Below, in pieces: positions 2,316 to 36,292 of a DNA stretch of 64,000 nt (position 1 is its first letter; each line of letters opens with the position of its first letter). The DNA is taken from contig CM102287.1 of assembly GCA_046563655.1 (NCBI GenBank), positions 9,858,001-9,922,000 on the forward strand, given 5' to 3'. The translations under genes were made by a program, and so were the position numbers. Under the pieces are notes generated by a model. The model worked only from the letters and a program-made list of their open reading frames with translations, was not told the origin of the DNA and did no database searches. The DNA is from Yuukianura sp. NJ FZ-2021. Taxonomy: Eukaryota.

Positions 2316-5300
2316 ATGAGTTCAATTTCTAAGACGATTTCTGATGCGACGACGACAGTTCGAGAGTCCATGAAGACTGCTCTGAACATGGGCATGACAA
2401 TGGGCAGTGGAACCAAGGACGTCGGGACACTTCACTACAACGGTAAGTTCAATTTCACCACGACAGGTCAAAGCTCAAGGTCACCCAAAGGTCACGCGGT
2501 CAAAGGTCAACTATTTAGTTTCATGCAGTATAAACTCAACTTTGTAAAACGCCAAACAACTTTTTTTATGATGCGCCACAGATTCCAACCTTGGTATAGT
2601 AGGTTAGCCATCGCTTTCAGAATTTTCTTCTAATTTCAGCTAATTTCAAAATTAAACTTCTTTTCACAAAATGAAAACTTTCACCTAAAAAAAAACTGTA
2701 AATTTTGAATTTGGAAAGTTGGACTTTGTGCTATGGAATGTTGGGAATGCGGGAGAGATTAGGGCTAGAGTTTATTGTTTAAGCGGTCCCCCTCCCTGTT
2801 TGTGACAGTAACAGATTTGGAACATTCACAGAAGAAGCATTTGGAGGGAGTAACTATTTTATTACACTTTTGCCCCGCTCTTTTTCAAATTTTATGCGTC
2901 CGGGTAACAGACGGTTCCTGCCTGTCGTTTCTCCCAAGTGGAAGATCACATTTAATTAAATTCTTGCTCACCCTCACTCAATCTCTCTAATCTCCCAGAA
3001 ATAACAAACTGACTGGACAGATACTACACAAAGGCATGCACGGGCATCAAAATTTACAAAATTTGAATTCGAAATTTTGAAAATTTGAATTTTATCGTTC
3101 CCTCTCTTTTCTTGCTGAGAGGGGGAGGGAGGGTGTTGATTGAGTGAAAGTCAAGTGAAAGTGGATTTGGGTTGGCAAACAATGAGGCTGGAAGTGACAA
3201 TGTGCAGGGAGTGGCTGCCTATCTCCCGTCTCCAGGGAAAAAGGCTTCATTTCCTTCCAAATTCAATTTTCAATTGAAAAGTAACCACCAGGGGTAACCT
3301 CAAGTAACCACTGAAGTAACCACCAGTAACCAACCAGAGATGCACAGACTAGATTCCGTTTTTTAAAAAAGATGCTTCTGGGAGGGAAAGTTTTTGAAAA
3401 GAAAGTTCCTCCAATGTTGTGAAGCCTCGGAGGGGAAAACCCACACAATTCAATTCTGATTGTAACTCAAACACCGGAAAAACACTTCCGCATCCGTCCA
3501 CCCCCCCCCCTCAAACCCCTTCCCCCCGTTTAGAGGGGGGGGGGGTGACATAAAACGTGAACAACAAATCTTAAAATGTATTTTAACTTTTTAAATAACT
3601 ATTAATTTATGTTATTAGATAATGTAAGACAGTGTATTTGAGTAGTGTTTAAAGCTAATGTTGAATCGCTGTTAGTCTCGTGGGAGTTTAAGTGGAAATG
3701 AATGTAGTGGAAGGAGGCTTAAGGGCTTTTCTCCTGTCAATATTCCATTTTCCCACACAAATCCAACTCCTTTCACTCTCGTCATGAACTTTGACATGAA
3801 CAGTTCGACGCTCCAAGTGCTCAAAATGACGGGAAAGAGCCAGCTGAGCCCTGTCAATCACTTTCACGCTCTAACTCTTAAGCCTTAATGCATAGGAATA
3901 GTTACTCCCTCCAAAAGATTCTAAAGTCTCAGAAACTTTTAGCAAAATGATTACTTTCTCTAAAAGATTCCACAATTTTAGATTCCGCTTGAATAGTTAC
4001 TCCCTCCAAAAAAAATCCAACTAAACTGGCAAGACTTTTTCTAAAGTATTCCAGACTTCTCTGCCGTTGTAAAATTAGTAACTTCCTCCAAAATATTGGA
4101 GTTTTTTGTTGAATTGAAGTTAGTTGATACGTCCAAGATTTAAAATTTTTTGGTTGAATTGAAATTAGTTACTCCCTCCTAAGGTCGTAATATTTTAAGT
4201 TTACAGTGACTTAGTTAGTTACTCCCTCCAAATAAAATCAACCTTCAGGGAAAGTTTTCTCTTCGGGGTTGTAGAAATCCTGTTTTTTTGAAAATTTAAA
4301 ATTTTGAACTTTTTTTTAGATCTGCTTCCATGGAACAGCAATGGAAGCAAGGAGACACACGACTTTTACAACAAGTTGACCCCAATTTTACTTGATTTCA
4401 TTGACAAGTCGAATGATCGGAACGAAAAGATCCTGGACTTTCACCATCCAGACCAACTCATGGATGTTATGGACTTAACTCTTCCAGAAGAACCACAAAA
4501 CCTGGATCAAATCCTCACTGACTGCAAGGATGCTCTCAAGTATCAAGTCAAAACAGGTAAAACATAACCTTAATCAAAAACTATTCACAAAAACAGTTTA
4601 CTCTCAATCAGTATCAAAACAAACAAAAAACTTTCTCTTTTACTTTCTACTTTGTCTATTGTTAGTTTTTGGGATTGTTCTGGATTTGACATTTGTTTTT
4701 GAAAAAGCGGGTTTTATTCCCGCCTTTTGTGAGGGTGCCCGGAGTAGTGGTGGGTTTAAGGCGATTACAAGTTGAAATCGGGGTCTGAGGAATTAGGGTT
4801 GGTTGACTGCCTTTCAAAAGGCACTCGGAGGAACACATTAGACTCAAGAGATCCTCCGGAGTGAAGAGGAGGAGGAGGGGGAGCTCTTGAGCCGTCCAGT
4901 GAAGCATGGAAATATCAAAATAATCCACTTTTTAGGAGGGAGGAAGAGGAATTCCTGGAGAAAGTAGGAATGAGCACAATTGGAATTCCTGCGTGGGAGC
5001 TTGGAAAAGTGGAGGCAACTTCTGTTCGTTTACTTTCTCAATTCTTTGGCTCTAAATCTTCCCCACCCTCAAACAGCCTGTCACTCACAGATGCTTCCCC
5101 AGCACACTCCCCCTCTCACTTCTTTTATTATCCAAATTTTGATTTTGGCATTAATGACACAAGGCACACTTTGGTCAAAGCACAAAAGCATTAAAGCCAA
5201 TCGCTCACATTAAATCTACGCGAAAGTGAAAGTGACAACTGCCAAAATCGGCGAAAAACTGCGAAATCTGCGGTGAAAAGACGAAAAACCAGCGAAATTC

Positions 5301-8300
5301 GCGACAAAACTAACGAAAAACTATAAACTAAAAAATCACAAAGGTGAAAGTTGGGGAAATAAAAAAGAAGTTTTGCTGTCTGGAACTTTGTAGTGGCAAG
5401 AAATAGAAACGCGAAAAAAATTTTAGTTTCGAATTTTCAAATTTTGCACGAAGATTTAGAACGTTGCTTCTTAACGAAATTGAACATTTTCAACGAAATC
5501 GAAACTCGAAAGAAAAGTTTTTGTTTCGTTTTTAGTAATTGGGAGGCTTTACTTGAGCCTTTTTCTTCCTGATTAAAAGCTTTTTTCCACTTTTCCCTCG
5601 ACTGTGGGAAAAACCCGGGAAGAAAACAAAACTTTTTTCTCCATTTGAAGAAAAGAGGCAGCAGTTGTTTTAAAAGATTTTTTTAGATTCGTTCCCCTCT
5701 CCATCGGATTTTCATTTGGTTCACTGCAGAAATGTTCAGTAATTACCCACACACTTTTCCCCCTTGAGCAAACCTTTTCCCCAAGAGACCCATTTTCCCA
5801 CCCAAGAAAAAAAATAGTGACGGTAGGATTTGAACTGACGACCACACCAGGGTGAGTGATGATGATTTTATGCCTGGCTCTCCTGGAAATCCGAAATTCG
5901 GGTGGGTTAGTTTGAATTCCCGCGAGAAAAGATGTGATCCGGGTAGAAGAAAGAGAAAGTAAATCCCGGGTTTTCCTTCTCGGAGTCTCTCACAATATGA
6001 CATCCAATTAGGCCTCTTCTTCCCACATATGCTCCCTCTCCCTAGTTCATTGATTAGGTTAAGGTTAGGCTAAGGTTAGGTTTTGATTAGGTTTCATTCA
6101 ATACTGTTTGATAGAAAAAAGTTTCAATTCACGTTCGATCTGATGTAACCACGACCGTATTTTTCCAAAAACAGCTCAATCAACTTTCACTTAAAAAAAA
6201 GCAAAAGCTACTTTATGGTTGACATTGTCTGTCTGTCTGTCTGTCTGCCTGCCTGTCTGTCTGTCTGTCTGTGTGACTGCTAAAAACAGTGGGGAAAAAA
6301 TGCAGAAGCTACTTTACGGTTTGACATTCTCTGTCTGTACGTCTGTCTGTCTGATAAAAACAGAGTAGGGGTAAATTTTGATTATTTCTTTTTTTTTGTC
6401 ATAGTTGTGTTCATTTGGGTAGAAAATCGAGAGACAAAGGATCTTCTGAGCTTTTGTGTATTTGAAAACAATTTTGTGAAGAGGTCAAAGGTCAGTGAGC
6501 TGCATAATAGATTTCCTGGATCAACCAATGGGAATCCCCCATTCTTCTGCTCCGACGAACCAACAATCACTTCATCCCCCACAAATCACAATGCATCAGA
6601 ACAATACAAAAACTCATCTCGAGACAGAATCTCTCAAAATCTCATCCTACCAAAAAAAAATTCATGAAAACCCTAAAAAGTTCATTTGCTGTTTGTTGCT
6701 GAATGCTGAGAATAAAAAAAAAAAGATTTTTTAGAATTCCACTTCAAAATTCAAAATTCGAATTTTGTTATGAAAATTCCAAACATCCTAAAAATTTTGC
6801 GCACAGAAGAGAAGTATGGGCAAAAAAAACTTCAAACTAAGCCATTTTCTTTGTTAAACGACAAAATATTCCTTATTTTTTTCCCCGGGTTTTAAATTGG
6901 AAAGGGCATTTTTTTAAAATAAAGCTCTAAAATAAAGTTTTTGTTCTAAATTTGTTTTAAATTTCTATTTGAACAGGTCACCCTCACTTTTTCAATCAGT
7001 TGTCGACTGGACTGGACACGGTGTCCCTTGCTGGAGAGTGGCTCACTGCCACGGCCAACACGAACATGTTTACATACGAAATAGCTCCTGTTTTCATCAT
7101 GATGGAGGACATTGTGCTGAAGAAGATGCGGGAAATCATTGGATTCCCCCAGGGGGACTCCATTCTGGCACCAGGCAAGCAAAACCCACTTTATGACCCA
7201 CCATTACCATAAATCCCACCATTAAGACCCACCAAACCCACCTTATCTCTTCAAATACCCATAAACCCATTCAAATTGAAACACAGAACCCCTCTTCCAG
7301 CTCAATTACTCAGTAATTCAAAAGGAATTACTCCGTAATTACTTTGTAATTGGTGAATTACGTAATTACTGGAGTAATTAATTACTTGTGTTTCCCAGGT
7401 GGAAGCATTTCCAATTTGTATGCAATTATTGTGGCGAGACACAAAATGTTTCCAGACTACAAGAAAAAGGGGCTCAGAGCTCTTCCGTCTGGACTCGTCA
7501 TGTTCACATCAGAAATGGTAAGGTCAATGACCTTTGACCTCAGGTCAATGACCTTGAATTGACCTTTTACGTTTGACCTTTAGTGTCACTACTCAATCAA
7601 AAGTGCAGCGATGGTCACTGGCCTTGGAATGGAGAATTGTGTAGAAGTTCCAGCGGATGAGCGGTAATTTTTCACTTTTGTTCAAAATTTCGAAATTCTG
7701 AAATTCAGTGACCTTTGACCTTTGATTTTTGCGTGACCTTTGACCTTTTTAGAGGTCGGATGATTCCAGCGCAGTTGGAGAGGTTGGTGCTGAAAGCTAA
7801 AGCGGAAGGAAAACATCCGTACTTTGTGAATTGTACTTCCGGAACAACAGTTTTTGGAGCCTTTGACCCCATCAACGAAATTGCAGACATTTGTGAAAAA
7901 CATGGTCTCTGGCTACACATTGACGTAAGAACAACAATTTCAAAAAAAGTTCAAATTTTCAAAAACAGAAAAGTTTCTGAAAACTTCAAATTTTTACTTT
8001 CTCCAGGGAGCGTGGGGTGCCAGCGTCCTCATGTCGAAGAAATACAGACATCCAAGATTCACTGGGGTGGAGAGGTAAAGTTGAGGGGAGAAGTTTTAGA
8101 AAATGTTTTTGAAAAAGTGTTCGTTTTTTTTTTTGAAAACCTAAATTTTGAAATTTAAATTGACCTTTGACAGTTGAAAAGCCTCGAAGTAATTGATTAG
8201 CACTTTCTCTTTTGAATTAATTGTAGAGCTGACTCCCTCAGCTGGAACCCACACAAACTCCTGTCGAGTCTCCTCCAGTGCTCCACCGTTCACTTCAAAG

Positions 8301-9176
8301 AAAGTGTAAGTCACGACTAATTAACACTAGTAATTAATTAATCCAAAAGTAATTAAGTAATTCATCAATCCAAAAGTAATTCATCAATGTCAAAGTCACG
8401 TGACCCTGATTTGCATAATTCCTAGGGTGGATTGGTAAGCTGTAATCACATGGGTGCAGACTACTTGTTCCAGCAGGACAAGCACTACGACGTCCGATTC
8501 GACACGGGCGACAAGGTCATTCAATGTGGTCGTCACAACGACATTTTCAAGTTCTGGTTGCAGTGGCGTGCCAAGGTGAGGTCAATGACCTTTGACCTTT
8601 TGGATTTTGACCTTTTATCTTGACTTTCATCTTTGATTGATCTTGACTTTTGACCTTTGATTTTGACCTTCATCTTTGTTGATCTTGACATTCATCTTTG
8701 ACCTTTTGTTTTTACTTTCACCTTTGAATTGATCTTTGACCTGTGATCATCACTTTCACATTTGACCTTTGACCTTCAGCTTTGAATTGACCTTTGACCT
8801 TTAGGGAACGAGTGGCCTGGAGAAGCACGTTGATTCGTTGATCGAGCTGTCCGAGTACATGGTGGAGCGGATGAAGTCAATGCCTCAGAAGTTCTACCTC
8901 CTCGTGCCAGAACCAGAACTGGTCAACGTCTGTTTCTGGTACATTCCGCTGCGCCTGCGCGGAATGAGTCACGGACCAGAACGTGTCAAACTCCTAGGCG
9001 ACATCACTCCGAAGATCAAAGCACGCATGATGGAAGCAGGGACGTTGATGATTGGCTACCAGCCACAAGGCGACATTCCCAACTTCTTCCGCAACATCAT
9101 CTCCAATCCAGCAGTCAAGAGAGCAGATGTAGACTTCCTTCTGGCAGAAATCGATCGGTTAGGACAAGATCTCTAA
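2316..9176 (+). CDS. Gad1: Glutamate decarboxylase (group II PLP-dependent decarboxylase), 533 aa, 10 coding exons: 2316-2442, 4320-4556, 6977-7174, 7399-7517, 7584-7663, 7753-7924, 8007-8074, 8227-8305, 8426-8575, 8805-9176
   Basis: Exons join in phase (1602 nt). The product has GAD hallmarks: [79 protein letters not shown], the PLP-lysine motif [35 protein letters not shown] and NFFRNIISN. Intron 3 is GC-AG. Confidence 0.96.
6227..6272. repeat. (GTCT)n microsatellite, slightly interrupted, in Gad1 intron 2
   Basis: gtctgtctgtctgtctgtctgcctgcctgtctgtctgtctgtctgt seen directly, with a shorter echo near 6331-6353. Confidence 0.9.
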
Positions 9177-11904
9177 ACAAATAGAAGAAATGATGACCTT
9201 GACCTTCAAAAGGTCAAAGGTCAACATCTTAGTCCGAAATTAGATACTATATGAAAAACATAAAGTCGAAATATTTAGAAAAACTATACTAAACTATCTA
9301 GAAAAGAAAATTAGTTTGGGTCACTAAGGTCACCAAAGAGGAGAAAGTTGAAAGTGAGTGAAAGTGGAGAAATGCCGACTTCTGCATTTTCACTTGCACA
9401 ACAAATGTTTCGTTTACGAAAATTTTCATTAGAAAAAACTTTCGTTTCAAAAATTTTTTGAACATTGTGGATTGCGAAAACTTAAAAATGAGTTCATGAA
9501 ATTAGTTTCCAAAAGAAATGCCGACTTCTTTTGGAAACTAAATTGAAAATGGAAGTTTAAATGAAATGAAAAGTTAATTGTAATGGTAATTAAGTTAATT
9601 AATTAATGAAACTTAATTGTTAGAAAACTGTAACAAATGAGTGCTTCCAAAGGTACCTGTGCACAAGTTAAACACCTAAAAACTATTTAGCAAAAACTTT
9701 AATTAATTTCAGACCATTATGTATAGTTTAACAATCTTTCAGATGTGAATTCTCTTCAAAATTCTCGAAATTAGAATTTAAAAGGCCATTTTTTAAATTC
9801 TGATTGAAGAATTGAAATTTTTGAAAATCGAAACTTGGATTATTCAATTTTTTGTTCTCTCTTTTGAATTTGAAATTTTGAGTTTAAGGTGAAGTTGGAT
9901 TTTGATCCCATGTGCCGACAGGATCAAAATCAAACTAACCAACTCTTTTTTTTTTTCATTTCTAAATTTTGAGTTGAAAAGTTGCAATGTGATTAACTAC
10001 ATAAACGTAAAACCGTAAAAGTTGTGTGTAAATTGTAAATGTTTACGTAAAATTTACGTCGTAAATGTTAACTGTATAGAAAATGGTAGCAGTAAGAAGC
10101 CAATCAGAGAGACGTGTGCTTCCGGTAGGCAATAACTTGTGAACTTGTAAATGGACCTTGTAGTTAGTTAACCTTTGACCTTTACCTTAGCAAATCACAA
10201 AGGATACAGTCATAATCATTGCTTGTGTATCATAGACAATAACAAAAGGGTCAACAGCAATTTACTCAACATCAATTTGATCAACAACGTCTTAAGCAAC
10301 TGGGTTTATCTCTCCTTGTACCCAAAGGATACGAAAGCCTGTGAACCTGACAATAATCGTCGACAAATAATTGTAATCCAAGAGATTAACTAATTAAACT
10401 AAATTAAAATAATTAATTAAACTTTAATTAATTAAACTTAATTAAAATTTTATCTTAAGTTAGGCTAACAAATGAGCCGTATTCCTGAGGAAGTCACTCC
10501 AAACTCACTCCGTATTAAATGTATCTGGTTTAGGTACCAAGTCAATGAACTTGGTACCTAAATAGCTAACCAGAAACCAGATTAGGCTAACCAGAGGTAC
10601 CACATTAGTTTAGGTACAAGTGTGTTGGTCTGCGTGTCAATCAGTATTATTTTGGAGAGGATCTATAGACTTTATGAAGATGTTAAATCAGAAAAGTTCA
10701 CAAAAAGTCTACAAACTAGCGTTAACTCTTCGCTTATTTCCTGAATTGTAATTGGTTGAGTGTGAATTGTATAATTAATTATGTAACTAGTTAAGGTGTA
10801 ATTCAGAAGTAATTAGGAAGGAGTTCAATAGCTCGATTCAAATGGATCCAAGTATCCAGACAATAAAATCAAAGTCTTCCAGAACTATAAAGAGAAACTA
10901 AAGTTAAAGTTAAGGTAAAACCTAAAATTAGTTAAGGTTAGTTCATCTTGTTTAGCATTTTAGTTGGTAAAATAACGTCCGAAATGTCTACTTTCCTTTG
11001 TGTCCAAAATTTGAATTGGAATTTTCTTATAATTTTTGTGATAATTTTTAATTTCAGTAATGCCGTGTTTAATTGTTAAACAGTTGTTGTTTTTGTGTCA
11101 ATTGTTAAAGTAGCATACAATTGCATTATTATTGGTTGGTTTGACCTTTGACCTTGTGCCGTGTGAGGTTTAGTTGTTGAGTCCTGAGCAGAAGTTATAA
11201 TAAAGTTAAAACTACTATTTTAAATTACAGCCCGTGTAAAAAAAATTGTTATGTTCGGTACTCAGAAATTGATTCTGAAGTTATAAAAATTTCTACGAGT
11301 TTCATGAATTTAATTTTTATGAATGGCGTTTAAATTATGAATTTCATGCAGATAAGCTGAAAAGACGCTAAATTCAAATTTGGCGCCACACAAAAACCAA
11401 ATTTAAAAAAACCCGGGAATCAAAATTCAAAAATTGAGAGTTGAAAATTGTAAAAGTAGAGTTTACATTTATTAATTTTATATTTAGATTTAATTAATTG
11501 TGTTTAATTAGTTAATCCCAACTGCCAGTACCATGTACTAATCGACGGATTGCTTGCTTGGGTTGGATGATTGACTACCCGGACAGGGACAGATTCACTG
11601 TTCGTGACTTCCCACATGTGTTGGCATGACATCTAAGAAGAGGTAATACAGGTCAAAAGGTCAGGTCACAATTTAGTTGAAATTCAATTAATCTGATTGT
11701 TTACTTTATGTAGTTCAAGTGCAGAGTCATAAGTCATCTGTGGTGATTGACACAAGGCGACAGACAGACGTTGTGAAGTTCTTGTTCGTTGGTGTCGCGA
11801 GTTTTGAAGGAAGTCAGTAATCAAATCACTAATCAGTTACAATCTAAACCAGGGTGGATCCGAATAATCCGAAATCTTCAGCTGGAAGAGGAGCTACAAC
11901 TGTC

Positions 11905-12329
11905 ATGGGTTCAATTGAAGAAGAATTTGACAAGGCCATAAAGTACATTCAGGAGTTGCCCAAGGAAGGTGAATCATCCAATTGAATCATATTTACACCG
12001 AATGAGTGCCGTCGGTGGTGTCCAAAGTCCAAACATACGAGGAGACTTAAAATGTTGTTACTAATAATTTCTGTTGACATTTTGTAGGCCCTTACAAACT
12101 GAAAGATGACGAGAAGAGGAGACTTTATGGTCTTTTTAGACAAGCCAAAGATGGACCCTGTAAAGATGCCAAACCCAAAGGATTTTTCCAGTTTTCTGCC
12201 AGGGCTAAATGGGATGCGTGGGCAGTTCTTGGTCAAATGACCAAAGAAGATGCCATGTCGCAATACGTTGACGAGTTCAAGAAACTACGCAGTCGATTTG
12301 AAACGGCTTCAGCTGCTCAGGAAAGCTAA
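11905..12329 (+). CDS. Small acyl-CoA-binding (ACB) domain protein, ~101 aa, exons 11905-11968 and 12088-12329 (missed by the ORF track)
   Basis: Spliced product MGSIEEEFDKAIKYIQELPKEG|PYKLKDDEKRRLYGLFRQAKDGPCKDAKPKGFFQFSARAKWDAWAVLGQMTKEDAMSQYVDEFKKL... has the ACBP pattern F..A, LY.L..QA..G, AKWDAW, AM..Y. The intron is canonical GT-AG, phase 1. Confidence 0.9.
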
Positions 12330-13389
12330 CACATCCAACTTCGAAACCAATACAACTCAAGTGTTCCAAAGACTGAACAACATCGTGCAAGTATTCTTAC
12401 TTCTGGAAGCAGCTAAACTCCAGTATTCTACCGTCCACTGCGGCTGCTATTAGTTGACTAAAAGTTAGTCTTGCCATTTTAGTGTTAACCATTCATAAGT
12501 ATTTTGGGATTACGAGGCAAAGGAGTATTACCATTTGCTCATTCTATTTACTCTACTGCCATGGCCTCTATTTTCATAAAAGATAATGTTTTTCTTGTTG
12601 TGCTAAAACCTTAGGTTATCCATTATCAATCTTAGTTCGCGTTATCAATTAAGTTAGGCCTTGCGAAATCTAACTTACTATTACGTAAGTTGAACTTCTC
12701 AAGAACATGAAATAAAATGTTGCTGGTCATTTGATACTTTGTGCATCATTGCATCTGTTCCATTTTTGTCAGTTTAAGCCTCAATTAGTTGACTAAAATT
12801 TTAATTTTTAATTACAAGCTAAACAATTTGCAAAGTTTTCAGCTCACTGTGCTATTTTTATCCGGGTTTTCCGGGAAGTTAGCCGTGCCGTGCCATCTTC
12901 CATTCCATCTCCGAAGGCCAACTGCATCAGGTGATTTTGTTTTGACTCAAATCAGCAAATCTTTGCTCATTTTTATTCAATTGACATTGATTAGACTTAT
13001 TGGTACACTTAATTGTAATTAACTAGTCAAAAACTTAATTAAGGTCAGATCTCGAGCAGTGCTGTGGAGACATCGGTTCTTGTTCAGTGGAATCCAATAA
13101 TCTCGGAAAGGTAATTACGTGATCTGTTTATAGCGTAGGCGATTCAATCGATTAGATTATGCATTGCATGTTGCTTAATCGTAAGCTTAAACTAGGAATT
13201 GAGGTTGACGTTATGTGAAATGACCATCAATCATGTTTTATTCATAGCTTAGTTCAGAAATTGTTTGCAGAATATTTAAAGACCATTCCAGCTCAGATAC
13301 TTTATCATGTGTGTTGATCGATCCATTATTCATTCCATTCCTATTTAAATACTTGTCTTTTCCAGGAAACGGACATTGTACTTGGAACC

Positions 13390-15102
13390 ATGGACGTGTC
13401 AAGGAATATCAGAGGATGGAGACATGCTGGACCACTGAATACATTAGTGAAGTCAATGCTCATAACTCTGCTGTGTTGCGGTCGCTACTTGCTACAAAGA
13501 CGATATACTTACTGGAACAGGATCTCCAGTCTCAAATTACTTATTGGCATCATCTTCAGAAGGACGACGACAACCTCTGGCCAAGTTATGGAAAGTGTCG
13601 ACTGCCAAAATACAGGAGTAGCTAAGAATGACGAGGAACAGGAATTACAAGTGACATGTGGAGGTGTTGATGACAAGGAAGACCGTTTGCAGCAAATGTT
13701 TGATGCAGCAGTCAAAGTCATTCAGCGATTGCCAAAAGACGGTATACCAATACTAATTAATCGAAACTTTCAATTAGTTTTTCTTAATTTATCGATTTTT
13801 GTTCTTCCAGGCCCCTACCAGCCCTCGAACTCAACCAAACTCCGATTTTACAGTTTGTATAAACAAGTGACAGAAGGAAAGTGTACTCAGCAACAACCTT
13901 ATCGATTCCAAATGGTGGACAGAGCCAAGTGGGACGCCTGGAACGGCTTAGGTGACATGACCAAGGTTGATGCCATGACAGAATATGTCGAGGAGCTCAA
14001 AAAAGTTAGTTGTCAGTTCTGTCCAGTTGCGATTTCGTTATGCTTTAGCTCCCACTATTCTAGATTGTGATTTTTTTTCTAGATTGTCGAAACCATGTCG
14101 TTTAGTGGCGAAGTTCAAGAATTCCTGGACACTGTCAATCCCTTTTACGAATTTGTGGCTCTACAAGATCAAGGTCAAGAAAAAATCTCCAATGTCAAGG
14201 AATCTCTGGATCAAAATCAATGGAACTCGTCTGATACGGACGTCAGTTCCACAAATACGTCAATTCATCCTACACCTATCCACATTCCTGAACAAATCGT
14301 CACATCTACGTTCATCACCAGTAACGGCTGGCCCAAACACAATGAACTCGGGAACGGAAACGTTTCTGCTGGAAACGGAGGATACTTGATGGCTAACGGA
14401 CACGTTCCACTGGATATGGATAAAGAATCGCTTGAAGACTCGCTGAACGTGGACAAGGAATCGCTGGAAGATTCGCCAACGAAGATCAATCGTCACAGTT
14501 TCGCTTCTTCTTTTCACCCTCCGTCGGCTCCAATTCATCGCCGCAGTATAACTGGCTGTACTTCGTCGGATTTTGATGACTCATTTCGACCTGTTTCCGA
14601 GGACGCTAAGCACGAAGATGTGCTGAAAGTTGATTTAGACGAATCTCAAGCCGTTACTTCCCTAACAGCTCGTCTCTCAGCTGATAACTTAACGTCACCT
14701 TCCGAGAGTGAACGATACTACAGCGGAGAGAGTGAACCCGACATAGACAGTACTATAAAAACGGCTCCTCCGGAACCGCTGTACTCCCTGCCAGGAAGCT
14801 CTTCATCGACGGTCCGTTTCAGACAAAACAGTACGATCGAAGTTAATCGGATTCTGCAAAATACGGTAGACAGACTCAATCGAGATGTTGATCACATCGT
14901 GGCTAGAATTCGACTTCTGGAAGCCGCTTATGCCACAAATGAACAGCTCAACCTTACCAACAGCTTGGTCAATCGCAGGAGGTCACTCTTTGGGGTCAGC
15001 CGATCTGCTTTGGCACTCATCTTGACATGGCCATTTGTTGCCTTCTTTATCATCGAACTGGTCAAACGGTGGTTGAGAAGACGTCGACGCGGAAGATTTT
15101 GA
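13390..15102 (+). CDS. ACBD5: ACBD4/ACBD5-like acyl-CoA-binding, tail-anchored membrane protein, ~521 aa; exons 13390-13741, 13811-14004, 14083-15102 (start could instead be ATG 13588)
   Basis: ACB domain (FDAAVKVIQRLPKDGPYQPS...FYSLYKQVTEG...RAKWDAW...AMTEYVEELKKIVETM), an acidic Ser-rich linker, a coiled coil (LNRDVDHIVARIRLLE) and a C-terminal TM (ALALILTWPFVAFFII) followed by a basic tail. This is the ACBD4/5 architecture. Confidence 0.85.
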
Positions 15103-16031: not shown

Positions 16032-18983
16032 TTAATAATTTAGTTCTTCCAGACACTTCTCCAGGAAAGGTGGCTGGAAAGCGTCCAGGTTCCAGCGCTG
16101 TACTGCTTCCAGCCCCACTTTGACGCTGAAACAGCTGCTGACTGTGCTGGTGCTCCAATCGCTGCAACGTGGCGCTTGTAGTATCTCTGCCACACACATT
16201 AGGAGAAGGAGAGCCAACCTAGATAGAGAGACCACAGAAAGTTTAAATTAGAGGAATGAGGAAGTGAGTAATTAATTGTTGAGACTATCACCCTGGCCTC
16301 AATTGGTGATAGACAGACCGTGCCCACCGCGGTGGGTTGACACGCCGCCGCGGTGGGCACGGTCAGAGGTCAATTATTTTCAAAATTGTTAACAATGAGG
16401 AGGGGGGAGGTTGGGGGCGGTGGGTGGAAGATCAAAGGAGAACCAATTTGGAAAGCATCATTCTTAATTTGAGGAGAAAGTGAAGGGGCTCTTCTTGACG
16501 CTTCTTCGCTTCCATCGATTTTTATCTTTTTTTTCCTCATCTCTGCCTCGCCGCTGCTTCGATTCCAGCCGGCCTCGCTTTCTCTTCTTCCTCTACCAAA
16601 AAAAAAAGTTGGTCTGTTCCAACTTCCAGCGTTGTTTGAAATCCCAGAGCTCCCCAGCCTTTCTTCTGCACAAAAAAAGTAGAATTGAGTCCAACTTGAG
16701 AGTGGAGTGAGTCGTTCCATTCATTGAGTCTCAAAAGAACCACACAGAATAAGCTTCTGGCCAAAAAACTACATCAGACGAACGATGACCTTTGACCTTT
16801 TGGCAACTCTCACTCCAGTTTCTTCGAACATCCAACTGCCAAAAATCGCTGAATCGCTGATCGCTAACTTCCAGAATCCAAGCGATTTCTAGAACGCCAG
16901 AATTCTAGAATTCCAGAATTCTTCAGTTTCAGAATCTCTGAAAAAAATAAAAACAATCAATCACAAATCAAACTTTCACTTAAATTATTCAACTTAAAAA
17001 TTCAAAATTCCTCAAAAATATTGAGGAATTTCTTAAAAATCGGTTTTCATGAATTTTTTTTTTAATATTCATCGAACTGGATCAACAAGGAACTGGTAGC
17101 CTCGTCTGGAAAAGTTTTTTTTTCCGCGCCCGAAGCGCGGAATTTTTTATTGAAAATTTTCAATGAAACGAGATAAAATTTGGGAATTGACGGGGTCAAA
17201 AGTCTTTGTGGAGGTCAAGTGCTAAAGTGTGAACATTTTTCCACTCGACTCTTATTTCATCTTCGTCAAGTGTGAAACTTTTTTTCCTTTCGGAAAAGTT
17301 CTTCTGTTACCCGTATTTTTCCCAGAAAAAGAGAAAAGACGATAGTGAAAGTTCCGTTTTTTGTGTGTTCTTTCACTCTCCTGCTGCGTTGACTAGACTT
17401 TTTTTTTTTATACAAGGGTAAGGAATTGATCCTGATCTTTCGATTTCCTCTAGAAACCGAAGAAGAGGAGCAAAAGATGACATGACAGGATAAGATACGT
17501 TATAGTACGTTACGCCAAGATTCCCAAAAAAGGCGGGAAAACGGAGAAGGAGAAAAGACTTTTTGAATTAGGCGATATTTGTCTCACTTCCGCCCAACCA
17601 ACTTTCGTCGCCTTATTTGTCCTTTACTTTGTGCATTGCAAGACTTTTCCCCCCATTTCCCACTTTTCCCCAACTCTTTTCTCTTTTTCTTCTCTTTAAT
17701 TAAGATTCTTAGCCCAGATGCCTTTGCTCACTTTCAAATTTTCAAAACTTTTCTTCCTCTTCTTCTTCCCGGGTTTTGAAACTCTTTTGCTCGAATTCTC
17801 CCAAACTTAAGATTTTGTGTGAGAAGAATTTTGAAAAGAGACTTGAAATGAGAGACTTTCTTTTCTTGAATGCTTTTGTGTTTTTGAGACTACTCTTTTT
17901 GAAGGTTGGAAATTTGAGAAGCCGGGAGCGCTCAATTGAGTTTTCTTCCACAAATTCTTATACTGTTGGAGGGACAAACAAAATTTAACAAAAACGGAAA
18001 GTAGTAGGAGGGAAGGCAATTAACGGCACAAAGCAAACTTCAAATATTTTCTTAGGCTTGTTCCATTTCTGATCATTCCTACGTTCAGTCTGCTCAATTT
18101 TGGACGATGAGTAACAATGGCCAAAAACTAACAATGAAAATGTCTCTTGAGGCTTATGGGGAAACTATTTTAAGAAATTGTAACAAAAATTTTGAAAAAA
18201 ATTTTGACGAAAACGTAAAGTTCAAGTCTATCTTCCCGATTTTGATTTTGGTTCGAAACTGAAACATTTCTAGAAAATCTCTCCTCTTCTTGAGATTTTC
18301 TAGAACTCTTTCAGAGATGAAGGTGAAAAAATCTCGAGTTTGAAAAGTTCCAGAGATTTTAATTTTATTAAAAAGTCAAACCAGATCAGGACTTTGAGAA
18401 ATGAAGGAAAACGAGCAAAAGAGGGAAAACTTCATTAACTTTTCAGTTTCTTTTTCCAAAAAACTAACTTTTTCATGTTTCAGGACTTGAAAAATTCGAA
18501 ATAGCACTGCGTAAGAGTCTGAAAACTTGATTAACAGATTTAAATTAAGTTAAAAACTAACGTTTTTCAAAGATCCGTCATTAGTAAAAAAAAACAGAAA
18601 CACTGCATTGATCCATCTCAGTATGAGTTCCATTTGGGTTTAAAATTGTTGTTAATTTTTGTTATTTGGCAAATATTTGCAGAATTTCTTAGCTTGGCAG
18701 CACAGAGTAGTACTGCGGCAGTACTTCCTGCTGAAAATGTGCTGGCAGTATTTTCAAGTTTCTAGAAAGTAGAATTGGTTTGTATCGCTTACCAACTTTT
18801 AGCGATGATTTGGCCTTGGTGGTGGTTAGGACGATGAAGATGCGTGGTTTGTTGAGAAATGATGTCATGAGTGGTGCTAATCCTTGATGTTGGAAGCTGA
18901 AGAGTGTGGATTTGGCCTGACACTGGCCTGGATGTTAATTGAGAGAGTGATGCTGTCTGGAGTTGCTGGATGGAGTGATGCAT
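16032..18983 (-). CDS. Putative 125-aa spliced ORF in the likely mir-184 host transcript (exons 18983-18793 and 16218-16032); may be non-coding
   Basis: Strong donor (TG|GTAAGC at 18792) and pyrimidine-rich acceptor (TCTCTCTATCTAG|G at 16219) are phase-compatible, giving ...IIAKSW|LALLLLMCVAEILQAPRCSDW...EELNY*. No family recognised. Confidence 0.35.
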
Positions 18984-23685: not shown

Positions 23686-26600
23686 TTTTATGCAGAAATT
23701 TTGTCTTTGTTTCCGTTTTAATTTCAAATGCTGATTCTTTTCCGTTTTTAGAACTATTTGAACAGTGGGTTGTTGAGTTTGATTTAGATGGAAAAGAGAA
23801 GTTGGATGGGAATGAATGGACAAAGTTGTAGGCTGTCACTGTAATTAATTAATCCTGGTCTAAGCTCAGTGGTGAGAGGGAAAAGCTTTCATTAAGTTCA
23901 CAAACACAAAGTTACGCACAAACTTTGGTTTCAAGTGAACGCTAACTGGAGTGCCGACGTCTGGCTAAAGAGGACGTTAGGCCATTACAGTCTAATTACA
24001 TCCAATCCAATCACTCTCGCATCAGTCGTCGGCACAATCACTTTAAAAAAAAACAGTTCAAAATGAAAAGTGGCATCACTTTTATCATAATTCTAAACTA
24101 AAATTACTAAAAATAACTTTCAAAATCAGTTTTCTCTCAATCTTTCACTTTTCTTTCAAACTTTTTCAAAACTGTCACCATTCGCACCTGTGCAGCCCAA
24201 AACAGCAAACACTTATGAAATTCCTGAAAAATGAAAAAATCAAGTTTTTGAACACTTTTCAAAAAAGTTGGCGCTCTAATGCTCTGAATAGCTTGAATTT
24301 AATTATTAGCATTACAATGAACTTTCAAACTTTCTCTTTCCATTGTTTCCGGATTTGGAAGTTTCTTTTGGCGTTTTGAACCAAACGGCTTCTTTTTCTA
24401 ACCGACTGGAGATGGAGCAAAAACTTAAAAAAATGAGGGAAATTCAAAAAAAGTCGTTTTTAAGCGTCTTACTTTTTTCACTGCTGGATTTTGGAACAAG
24501 AATGAAAATGAAGTTCGTGCTTTGATTGTGTAATGCTAATGCACTTTCTTCTTTCTTTTTTCCATAATTACATTGTGTCTCCTTCCGCATAGCCTAACTT
24601 CAAGTTATAACTTTAGCCTAACCATAAGAAAAAGTTGAAAGATAAAAATTGATTTATTCTGACGCACGCATCTTTTCAGCTTCTCAGCAGAGATTGACTT
24701 GAGCCTTTAAGTTTTTTGAGTTTACTTTGTCAATTGTTTTTACAAAAACTTGACACCTTATCCATCATAAATCCCATCACAAAAAAAATTGCACCAAAAA
24801 ACAACGCAACTTTCTCTTTCAGAAAAAGTTTTTTAAAAAAGTTAAATTAAAAAACAACTTTGGTTTTTATCCCCGAGTTCGATTTTTTAAATTGTTTTCC
24901 AGAAAAATGCAATTTCGACTCGATTTTTGTATAGGAACGGAATAGTTTTTTTTTCAAATATAGGCAGAAAAAATTGAAATTTCTTTTTTTGAAACCATTT
25001 TGAATTCCCAAGTGCCTTGTTCTAAAAATCCTTCTTTTTTTGAAATTTTGAAATTCTGTAGAAAATGGGGACTGATTGCCGCTTTTTTCCGTTTGAGTGC
25101 GAGTGGGAACACTTTATGGTTTTGGATTTAGGTTTTTCTGGGAGTGATTACATTGCAGCACGTTCTTTCTTTTTTAAGAATTCAAAAACTCCCGCCACTT
25201 TCTTCTCTCTTGGTTTCGTTTTTCATTGTAACTGTATGTGTGCTGGTCCAAGTGAGTGAAAGTGGACGTGGGAAAACTCAAAAGCAGCACAGCATTCCCA
25301 TTTAGGCAATGAAACTTCTACAAAAAGAAAAAAATTCTCCTTTTTTCAAATTTTTCTGCTTTTTTTGAAAATGTAGCAACCACCAGCGTCAACGTGTGTT
25401 TACATCTCCAATTCGGGTGACACTTGCTCAAAATGCATGGAAAATAAAAAACAGGCAAAATTCAAAAACTTTTAAAAATTCAAGGAGAAATTTCAAAAAA
25501 AGAAAACTGATCACAGAAACCCCTCCGGTCACACTTCATCTACTTTACATGGATTTTCACTCTCAAAAGATCTAAAAAAAAAGTCTTTTTCTTGGCGCGT
25601 TTTTCAAAATTGTGAAAGTAGCTAGAGAAAGCAGAGGCGAGAAAACTACTTTCACCAACGGCCACCGCCGATGCTATCCCAATGCTAATAACACCCTTAG
25701 GATATTCACACTTTCCACCACAAAAACCTGCACTCAAAGGACATCTTCTTGCATATAATAACCTTTGACCTTTTCCAAAAATTCAAAAAACTGAAATTTT
25801 TAACAAATTTTGAAACATTTTCTAATAACAAACTTAACAAATTAAGCCAAATCCATCGCAAATAACAAATTTTCTCCAATTTTAGTTTTTCTACTTTCAC
25901 CGTTTCTTACTTTTTTCTTGTTTCAAAAGTGGTGTAAGTCTCAAGCTCAAAATTTTGAAATGGTTTAAATAGTTTGAAAAGCTGTATTTTTGGAAAGTGC
26001 TTGTTTTTGAAAAAAAAGTTGGAAATCATTTTTCATTGCTTATCCAAATAGGAAGTGAGTTGAGGGATGGACTTGGTGACATTTTGTGGAGAAAGGATGT
26101 TCAGATTTCATTGATTTTCTGCCTCTTTTTCCACTCTTTTGCTTCTCCGCACTTCCTGCTTCGTTCTTCTTCTTCAACTTAAGAATTTTGAGGGAAAATT
26201 CAAAGTTGGAGAAAGCTAATGCTCCATTTTAAAACTTTGTGGATTGAAGAAGAGCGGGAAGAGAAGCGACTTTCTCTACATTTCATTTCTTCTGCCCAAG
26301 AAAGAGACTCTTCCGACTGGAAGATGAAGAAAAGACTGTGGGAATTGAACGCACACTTTTCATTTCCGTTCCTCTATCGAAGGAATCTCCAAATTGATTT
26401 CTCCTCCACTTTCTCCTGCCCCACCACTTTGCTCCACCAGACTCTGCCCCACCATTTGCTCCATCAAACTCTGCCCCACCACTTTCCAATCACCCACTGG
26501 ATGGAATTGAGTCAGAGGCACAACACTCAAATTAAATGGCAACAATTCAAAAAGTAAACGTGAGTTTTTAAACAAAAGAAGTAAGGTTTAATCTCATTCC

Positions 26601-34300: not shown

Positions 34301-34917
34301 AAGCGGGAGAAAAGAGGAATTGGTAATTCAAATAATAATTCCAGTGCTATTAGTGCCAAGGCAGAACACAAAGATTTATGACAATTACATTCGAATAACT
34401 ACAAAAGAATTACGAACTACGAACTACCACGAATTACTTTTCTTCAAACAATCAATTTTCAAAATTAAATTAAAAAGAAAGAATTAAATAAAATAAATAA
34501 AAGAATTAAAAGAATTAAAAAGAAAAAAAAAAAAAAAAAATCAATTTTCCCTCTAAACAAAATTTTCTTCCTCCTCCCAAGCTATTTCCAATTTCTCAAA
34601 TGATCAACTTTTTCAAAATTTTCAATTTTTTAAAATTTTGAACAAATCTCAAAGGTTTTAAAACAGATAACAACGTTTATTCTATAATAAGCTGCCCATG
34701 TATTTCCAAATGTGAAAGGTCAAGTGTCGGAATAGGTAGAAGAGCGGGAGCGGCGGGATTTAAAATTCGTATCGGTTGCCATGACAACCGATACGAAAAG
34801 CCGCTTCCTTATTTGCCTAAATCCGACTTCGTTTTTTAGTTGAAATTGGACCTGACTTTTCCTCGTCTTTTTTTCGTTGGTCATTTTTTCTCTTCCTTTT
34901 TTTTTGAAAAAGTGGAA

Positions 34918-36229: not shown

Positions 36230-36292
36230 AGGTCATTGACCTCAGGAATTTTTGAGGTCATTGACCCCAGAAATTTTTGAGGTCAATGACCT
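36230..36292. promoter_or_regulatory. Three tandem IR1 nuclear-receptor (EcR/RXR-type) elements
   Basis: AGGTCAtTGACCT (36230), AGGTCAtTGACCC (36255) and AGGTCAaTGACCT (36280), period 25 bp. Sequence match only; function is not shown. Confidence 0.5.

Follow-up and report, generated by a model that had tools for sequence, protein, structure and literature searches.

The described systems closest to the subject of this report are mRNA hairpins with a fixed loop motif: the iron-responsive element (IRE), which has the loop CAGUGN and a bulged C in its stem, the Smaug recognition element (SRE), which has the loop CNGGN, and the hairpins of MAT2A mRNA, which form a feedback sensor for the enzyme's product in a vertebrate system. 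Glutamate decarboxylase (GAD) sets the supply of γ-aminobutyric acid (GABA), and to our knowledge little is known about the post-transcriptional control of its mRNA in arthropods. Here, we analyzed a 64-kb stretch of DNA from Yuukianura sp. NJ FZ-2021 (assembly GCA_046563655.1, contig CM102287.1, positions 9,858,001 to 9,922,000 of the forward strand; hereafter, the window), in which a Gad1-type GAD gene is followed by three hairpins whose loops all hold the hexamer UGCCGA. An earlier note on this sequence had proposed that they are copies of one regulatory element of the 3′ untranslated region (UTR). The same hexamer was found at the tips of hairpins downstream of Gad1 in four related loci.

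Hairpins with a common loop hexamer downstream of Gad1

The last coding exon of the Gad1-type gene is an open frame on the + strand (8805..9176) that ends in the stop codon TAA at 9174-9176. Downstream of it, on the same strand, hairpin H1 (9354..9397; core 9357-9394) pairs the arms 9357-9371 and 9380-9394 around the loop AUGCCGAC at 9372-9379 (ATGCCGAC in DNA letters); its stem, which can be extended to 9354-9397, contains one G.G mismatch and one G.U pair. H2 (9499..9544; core 9502-9541) has a perfect stem of 16 bp (arms 9502-9517 and 9526-9541), which extends to 19-nt arms at 95% complementarity (9499-9544), and carries the same loop, AUGCCGAC, at 9518-9525. H3 (9893..9936; core 9898-9931) has a perfect 11-bp stem (arms 9898-9908 and 9921-9931), extendable to 9893-9936, and a 12-nt loop, CAUGUGCCGACA, at 9909-9920. 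The hexamer UGCCGA occupies 9373-9378, 9519-9524, and 9913-9918, that is, 197, 343, and 737 nt past the Gad1 stop. Folded as RNA, the three reach -21.5, -19.5, and -18.9 kcal/mol (z-scores of -5.04, -7.06, and -5.64, respectively), and none of 200 shuffles folded as well as H1, H2, or H3; the antisense strand of H1 is much weaker (-13.7 kcal/mol). The hairpins thus exist where the earlier note had placed them, their letters agree exactly with the sequence, and all of them fold far better than shuffles. The same note had called their stems unrelated, but H1 and H2 have in common an identical 16-nt core, AGAAATGCCGACTTCT, made up of the loop and the four inner base pairs.

The heptamer TGCCGAC occurs seven times in the window against 2.57 expected, a count that is weak evidence by itself because 2 of 100 shuffles reached it. 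Only the sites of H1, H2, and H3 are flanked by an inverted repeat, and none of the remaining four exact sites in the window lies in an apical loop. Two of these four are contained in a 9-mer, GTGCCGACG, that forms an inverted pair 67 nt apart (23951-23959 and 24027-24035); the 116-nt stretch around it has a z-score of -3.0, with the motifs in the stem instead of the loop, and the pair is probably unrelated to the Gad1 hairpins.

To find orthologous regions, the last exon was scanned against metagenome contigs. Among the 17 loci obtained, four had a last exon at least 67% identical to that of the window and a stop codon at the same place: L001 (84% identical, with 5 kb downstream of the stop), L002 (75%, 277 nt), L003 (67%, 1.1 kb), and L006 (77% over residues 61-122, a partial match, 1.46 kb). 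These animals are far apart at silent sites. Between the window and L001, identity was 0.83, 0.93, and 0.48 at codon positions 1, 2, and 3, and in all six pairs formed by the window, L001, L002, and L003 third-position identity was only 0.37 to 0.49, from which we conclude that silent sites are near saturation.

The downstream regions were searched for the hexamer UGCCGA only, and 70 nt were then folded around each match. Every sense-strand UGCCGA within 1 kb of the Gad1 stop, in the window as in the four other loci, proved to be the tip of a hairpin, located 223, 313, and 766 nt past the stop in L001, 123 and 197 nt in L002, 979 nt in L003, and 166 and 262 nt in L006. The five downstream regions (5,046 nt) thus contain 11 sense-strand copies where composition predicts 0.42 (Poisson, 1e-12) and no antisense copy at all. 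The 11 sites are kin by descent and not phylogenetically independent, for which reason these P values overstate their independence, but the pattern is unambiguous all the same. The eight orthologous hairpins fold with -8.7 to -30.0 kcal/mol and z-scores of -1.77 to -6.76, seven of them at -2.4 or below. As the earlier note had anticipated, orthologous Gad1 downstream regions do bear such stems: all four contigs carry one to three sense-strand hairpins tipped with UGCCGA, on different stems.

A fixed test required the motif center to be unpaired, the terminal loop to be no longer than 15 nt, and the helix to have at least eight pairs. Ten of the 11 post-stop sites passed it, the failing one being the irregular L003 hairpin with seven pairs. 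Elsewhere, in the 126,898 bases of the window plus the 17 loci, both strands included, only 1 of 29 UGCCGA sites did so (Fisher, 1.4e-7), against a background of 9.7% (480/4,938) when every position in the five downstream regions is counted. A dispersed repeat, the outcome that the earlier note had named as fatal to its proposal, is therefore not what we see within the bases searched. By these counts, the putative element is tied to the region downstream of Gad1.

What is invariant across the 11 hairpins of the five species is UGCCGA. The earlier note had taken the whole TGCCGAC as fixed, which applies to the three window hairpins but not across species, where the seventh base varies (C in six sites, A in two, U in two, and G in one); the base 5′ of the hexamer is A in five, G in four, and U and C in one each. 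In the ten regular hairpins the loop measures 8 to 13 nt, with 1 to 5 nt on the 5′ side of the hexamer and 0 to 5 nt on the 3′ side, and this variable placement favors an exposed, single-stranded hexamer over a rigid loop geometry. The U and A of the hexamer could pair in all cases, closing a GCCG tetraloop, and are so folded in the minimum-energy structures of H3 and of hairpin L002-a.

Stems, on the other hand, change while their pairing is kept. The orthologue of H2 is L001-b (L001 1585-1622), and of the 12 pairs compared, 9 are unchanged, 2 have had both partners replaced (C-G by U-A, A-U by G-C), and 1, beside the loop, is lost. When the partner strand was slid by one to three columns as a control, no compensatory pair was left, and pairing fell from 96% to 39-70%. 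H3 has orthologues at L001 2031-2079 (L001-c) and, less regular, at about 1783-1844 in L003; against L001-c it shows two double changes (G-C to U-A and C-G to G-C), in a helix counted by eye on account of a one-column shift of the pairwise alignment on the 5′ arm. Apart from these two orthologous pairs, stems have no recognizable mutual similarity. A MAFFT alignment of eight hairpins anchors on the motif and misaligns the arms, since the offset of the hexamer within the loop differs among hairpins.

As a cross-check only, a covariance model was trained on H1 and H2 of the window, which makes it too specific (it learns AGAA/UUCU). In the 11 kb of L001, L002, L003, and L006, its four best matches of 18 were orthologous hairpins, all in sense orientation (L001-b, E value of 2.5e-5; L001-c, 0.016; L006-b, 0.11; L002-b, 0.38), and in the 106,503 bases of the window and loci it found nothing else except the reverse strand of H1. 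Conserved loop, varying stem, and retained pairing, the marks of loop-specific 3′ UTR stem-loop elements, were all found here (the loop in 11/11 hairpins, compensatory changes in H2 and H3). Taken together, these results show selection on both the hexamer of the loop and the base pairing in five diverged species.

The Gad1 3′ region and its surroundings

A multi-species MAFFT alignment of the five downstream regions was reliable only for the window versus L001, and we used pairwise alignment and blastn-short blocks instead. Four conserved blocks stand out on the + strand: 9630..9659 (GUAACAAAUGAGUGCUUCCAAAGGUACCUG), 90% identical to L001 1712-1741; 10102..10145, in the distal 3′ region, 97.7% identical over 44 nt to L001 2238-2281; 10196..10242, 89% identical over 47 nt to L001 and 91% over 22 nt to L006; and 10302..10363, the block nearest to the poly(A) signals, which matches L001 2432-2493 at 95% identity across 62 nt. 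Parts of the four are visible in L003 and L006, including stretches related to the first. Pairwise similarity between the window and L001 ends at about 10375. The earlier note saw no AATAAA or ATTAAA between the stop codon and the hairpins, and we found neither between 9177 and 10392; the first canonical signals after the stop are a cluster of five ATTAAA hexamers at 10393..10446 (+), beginning at 10393, which we take to be the region of the mRNA 3′ end. Conserved blocks extend as far as about 10375, and poly(A) signals first appear at 10393-10446; on these grounds, the hairpins would fall within the 3′ UTR, and probably within a conserved 3′ UTR of ~1.2 kb that is under selection.

Between H2 and H3 lies a conserved hairpin of a second class, whose loop contains GGCCAU (9769..9805, +; z-score of -4.43); hairpins of this class also occur at L001 1879-1913 (-5.53) and L003 1561-1601 (-4.07), and the three stems are unrelated. 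In L001 and L003 the loop reads UGGCCAU, and the palindrome UGGCCA could form a kissing-loop dimer. The block at 9630..9659 has no significant fold (z-score of +0.46); it and the block at 10102-10145, likewise without a significant fold, both contain GUGCUUCC, followed a few bases on by GGUA, and could be sites that a protein or a small RNA binds in linear form. On this evidence, the Gad1 3′ region of these animals appears as a dense, conserved, putatively regulatory unit of ~1.2 kb with at least two predicted classes of hairpin.

The frame at 8805-9176 encodes the C-terminal end ...DRLGQDL directly before TAA. Among solved structures its best match is human GAD67 (E value of 7.5e-38), which outscores CSAD, GAD65, and GADL1 and to whose C-terminal end the frame aligns. 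Most protein matches that carry a source name are glutamate decarboxylases; the closest named proteins are those of a trombidid mite (69%) and of a springtail (68%); insect proteins are at ~60-65% and metagenome proteins at 78-84%. An upstream exon of the gene (7712-8155) matches Pfam Pyridoxal_deC. The next gene downstream on the same strand codes for an ACBP-domain protein (13318-15102, +; PF00887, E value of 6e-25), and L001 also has an ACBP-domain gene downstream of Gad1 (3681-4296; PF00887, E value of 3e-10). With this gene next after Gad1 in both, the window and L001 are syntenic, and the predicted Gad1-ACBP order is conserved between them.

Among other features of the window, a perfect 15-bp hairpin with the loop CAAUGA (10528-10563; z-score of -4.85) stands just beyond the ATTAAA cluster, and no match to it was found in L001 or the other loci. 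Short repeats of the type TGACCTT/AAGGTCA fill the last intron (8700-8800) and recur just past the stop (9194-9226) and at 10167-10190; a 17-nt pair at 9209-9225 and 10167-10183, 94% complementary, brackets most of the conserved region. These repeats are not conserved in L001, and DNA contigs with loose ends at 9192, 9224, and 10183 suggest that the motif is dispersed in the genome. Further inverted repeats of the window are located at 16316-16364 (a GC-rich stem of 17 bp), 18268-18305, 34766-34797, and 36255-36292.

Some DNA polymorphism was also seen. One contig of the X1 run skips 74 nt between H1 and H2 (9411-9484; joint 9410->9485) and leaves both hairpins intact, and one contig of the X4 run carries G instead of C at 9509, a base of H2's 5′ arm (partner 9534), and ends 5 nt further on; both are weak evidence, as contig joints at low likeness may stem from other organisms. 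In X5, a second organism, one contig over 9500-10600 has 57 other letters and 48 gap letters. The DNA contigs are fragmented and polymorphic, low-complexity AT-rich stretches attract unrelated contigs, and summed depth, being uneven across bins, carries no weight here.

A proposed loop-read element and alternative explanations

The combination of a fixed loop hexamer with stems free to vary as long as they pair, in several copies of one orientation at one gene, leads us to propose a loop-specific mRNA hairpin element. The favored reading, to which we give a probability of roughly 0.6, is that a trans-acting factor, most likely a protein, docks at these repeated hairpins by recognizing the exposed UGCCGA and controls the fate of Gad1 mRNA. 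In this model, the family would consist of sense-strand stem-loops in the Gad1 3′ UTR with UGCCGA in the apical loop and a stem of about 9 to 20 bp, whose sequence could change provided that pairing is kept. Each mRNA would carry two or three copies (one to three per examined locus), the factor, most plausibly an RNA-binding protein, would read the hexamer in the single-stranded loop, and the several copies would jointly set the stability, translation, or localization of the GABA-synthesis mRNA, in the manner of the IRE, SRE, and MAT2A hairpins. Of the multivalent regulatory binding site put forward in the earlier note, what stands is a selected, structured element in five species; binding by a protein and control of the mRNA are proposed by analogy.

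Several points weigh against this reading. The sample amounts to five species, three of them on short contigs, and the transcription of the hairpin region as a 3′ UTR is deduced from conservation and poly(A) signals. Strand preference is slight: by folding energy the sense strand is better in 6 of the 11 hairpins, worse in 4, and equal in 1, and the count of G.U pairs (14 sense versus 9 antisense) gives a weak lean only, by a biased method. The loops fit no RNA-binding motif with which we compared them. The window is, moreover, rich in short inverted repeats with loops of 3 to 15 nt, with 42 perfect stems of at least 9 bp where dinucleotide shuffles have 7.7, and 17 of at least 11 bp where they have 0.8 (5 of the 17 in the 1.4 kb past the Gad1 stop), so that a hairpin alone is nothing special in this genome. 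No sense-strand UGCCGA follows the mapped stop in seven more distant GAD loci (L004, L005, L007-L010, and L017; 41-58% identity) over the 99 to 931 nt available, and the element is therefore either restricted to a clade or placed beyond the ends of those contigs. Finally, at the position expected for H3 (about 920-960) L006 reads UGCGGA, the orthologous position having decayed. In L003, a 7-bp hairpin with the loop CUCCUGAC is found at 937-958, about 110 nt past the stop, and it is possible that this and the L006 site are decayed copies of the hairpin.

Among the alternatives, the loops could be substrates of an enzyme, either a loop-specific endonuclease of the IRE1 type or an RNA-modifying enzyme acting on a loop base, which we regard as unlikely. 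IRE1alpha cleaves within CUGCAG in a stem-loop, G is strictly conserved at position three, and sites one base off are still cut (PMC2952871). Our NUGCCG loops agree with this motif at U2, G3, C4, and G6, and the conserved stem and the several copies per mRNA would also fit; the sites in XBP1, CD59, and other mRNAs likewise combine a loop hexamer with the core UGC..G and two or more hairpins per mRNA. Nevertheless, CUGCAG itself is found in 0 of 11 loops: one loop (L006-b, CUGCCG) has one mismatch and the other 10 have two, the fifth base being always C and the first base C in only 1 of 11. Loop length varies as well, over the 8 to 13 nt given above. GAD is moreover a cytosolic enzyme, and its mRNA would not be expected at the endoplasmic reticulum, where IRE1 acts. 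We know of no RNA-modification motif that fits a UGCCGA loop, which counts against the modifying-enzyme variant.

The loops could instead act by pairing with RNA, in which case UGCCGA would bind either a small RNA whose seed is UCGGCA or a remote segment of its own mRNA or of a different one. Kept single-stranded at the apex of a hairpin, a conserved 6-mer would indeed be accessible, and the GGCCAU hairpins, with a palindrome able to self-kiss in two of three species, offer a conserved companion of that kind in the same region. Still, UGCCGA is not self-complementary, and UCGGCA is absent from the sense strand of all five downstream regions, which leaves no partner within the UTR; the bases flanking the hexamer vary, allowing at most a 6-mer seed match, and we know of no small RNA with a UCGGCA seed. 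Pairing of this sort seems improbable. A microRNA precursor was also considered and rejected: such precursors are hairpins of at least ~55 nt in which the arms are conserved and the loop varies, and here the conservation is reversed, the loop being fixed and the arms free.

To about the same degree we doubt that the element works as DNA, as a conserved non-coding enhancer or as a protein-binding or cruciform site downstream of Gad1. Conserved non-coding blocks are common near neuronal genes, both strands fold about equally well, and the transcription of the region is an inference. Against this, compensatory changes in the arms are not needed by a double-stranded DNA site, the conserved stretch runs, as a UTR would, from close to the stop codon up to the first poly(A) signals, and dimeric DNA-binding proteins keep their half-sites and vary the spacer, the opposite of arms that are free around a fixed center. 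The same conservation pattern was our ground for rejecting a dimeric transcription-factor site, the hairpin of a Helitron or other rolling-circle origin, and a recombinase site. It is hardly credible that the hairpins lack a function and are copies of some small inverted-repeat element, mobile or dispersed, or were left behind by a mutational process that makes palindromes, despite the five-fold excess of short inverted repeats over shuffles (42 versus 7.7) and the 16-nt core common to H1 and H2, as mobile copies would share their arms whereas here only the loop is common, no further copies exist in the 64-kb window or the 17 loci, and neutral DNA would not have persisted at corresponding positions between species whose silent sites are close to saturation. 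A miniature inverted-repeat transposable element or other dispersed inverted repeat was rejected for the first two of these reasons.

If the hairpins are loop-read docking sites, as we favor, they would open a testable route to the control of inhibitory neurotransmission in mites and their relatives, among which are pests and vectors whose GABA system is a pesticide target. They would also offer a short bait, an RNA of 30 to 40 nt with a six-base loop motif, for finding the putative reader protein.

Comparison with known elements

The earlier note knew of no described element like this one, and our searches agree. A scan of 8800-13300 against Rfam 15 (E value of ≤10) gave four matches, all of 17-19 bits versus thresholds of 40-90, none of them of the IRE type (RF00037). 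The only microRNA match in it, mir-7359 at 9772-9804 (19.4 bits versus a gathering threshold of 90), does not lie on the UGCCGA hairpins. Full-text literature searches for a UGCCGA loop or a TGCCGAC hairpin gave nothing relevant among the matches listed, and none was found that combined Gad1, 3′ UTR, stem-loop, and RNA-binding protein. Judged by the full-text literature searches and Rfam, the element looks undescribed.

One more specific idea is that the hairpins imitate tRNA-Gly(GCC) in its anticodon loop, U33-G-C-C, and are read by glycyl-tRNA synthetase (GARS) or another tRNA-binding enzyme, which would tie GABA synthesis to glycine status, glycine being the second inhibitory transmitter. 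We consider it very improbable; if true, the GARS-binding hairpins, described so far in the UTRs of picornaviruses, would have a cellular parallel. In these viruses, hairpins of the 5′ and 3′ UTRs with the glycine anticodon NCC in the loop, e.g., AAGCCA, bind the synthetase and stimulate translation, and the element is defined by CCA (C35, C36, and A37) at positions 4 to 6 of a 6-nt loop, A37 contacting the enzyme (PMC12781879). Our loops hold U-GCC, which equals U33 plus the anticodon, but 11 of 11 continue as CCG-A, with the required A37 displaced by G; CCA occurs in 0 of the 10 regular loops, which are 8 to 13 nt long. This is the closest formal resemblance that we found in print, but by the definition in that paper the Gad1 hairpins do not belong to the class.

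The nucleolin recognition element (NRE) offers another resemblance. It is a hairpin-loop hexamer, (U/G)CCCG(A/G), that tandem RRMs read, and UGCCGA is one base away from UCCCGA. That mismatch, however, lies within the conserved core, none of the 11 loops fits the motif, and the NRE is an element of pre-rRNA and of in vitro selection (systematic evolution of ligands by exponential enrichment, SELEX), not of mRNA 3′ UTRs.

Three regulatory systems have a comparable architecture, and the earlier note was right that the loop differs from the motifs of all three. MAT2A, the target of METTL16, resembles the Gad1 case in having repeated, conserved 3′ UTR hairpins with one loop motif in the mRNA of a metabolic enzyme. 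Its loop motif is UACAGAGAA, not UGCCGA, and nothing in the Gad1 hairpins points to modification or to metabolite sensing. The SRE bound by Smaug/Vts1 shares with our hairpins a short loop motif on a non-specific stem, a location in the 3′ UTR, and frequent repetition, its reader recognizing shape plus a few bases; CNGG, however, the core of its loop, is present in 0 of 11 loops. In the system of the IRE and its binding protein, as exemplified by the 3′ UTR of transferrin-receptor mRNA, several UTR hairpins also combine a fixed loop with variable stems, and the copies jointly set the fate of the mRNA. The gene is a different one, and the IRE loop, placed five pairs above the bulged C, is found in 0 of 11 loops. 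A repeated hairpin whose loop is invariant and which has been kept while silent sites were scrambled carries the hallmark of a dedicated RNA-protein switch, of which the iron-responsive element is an example.

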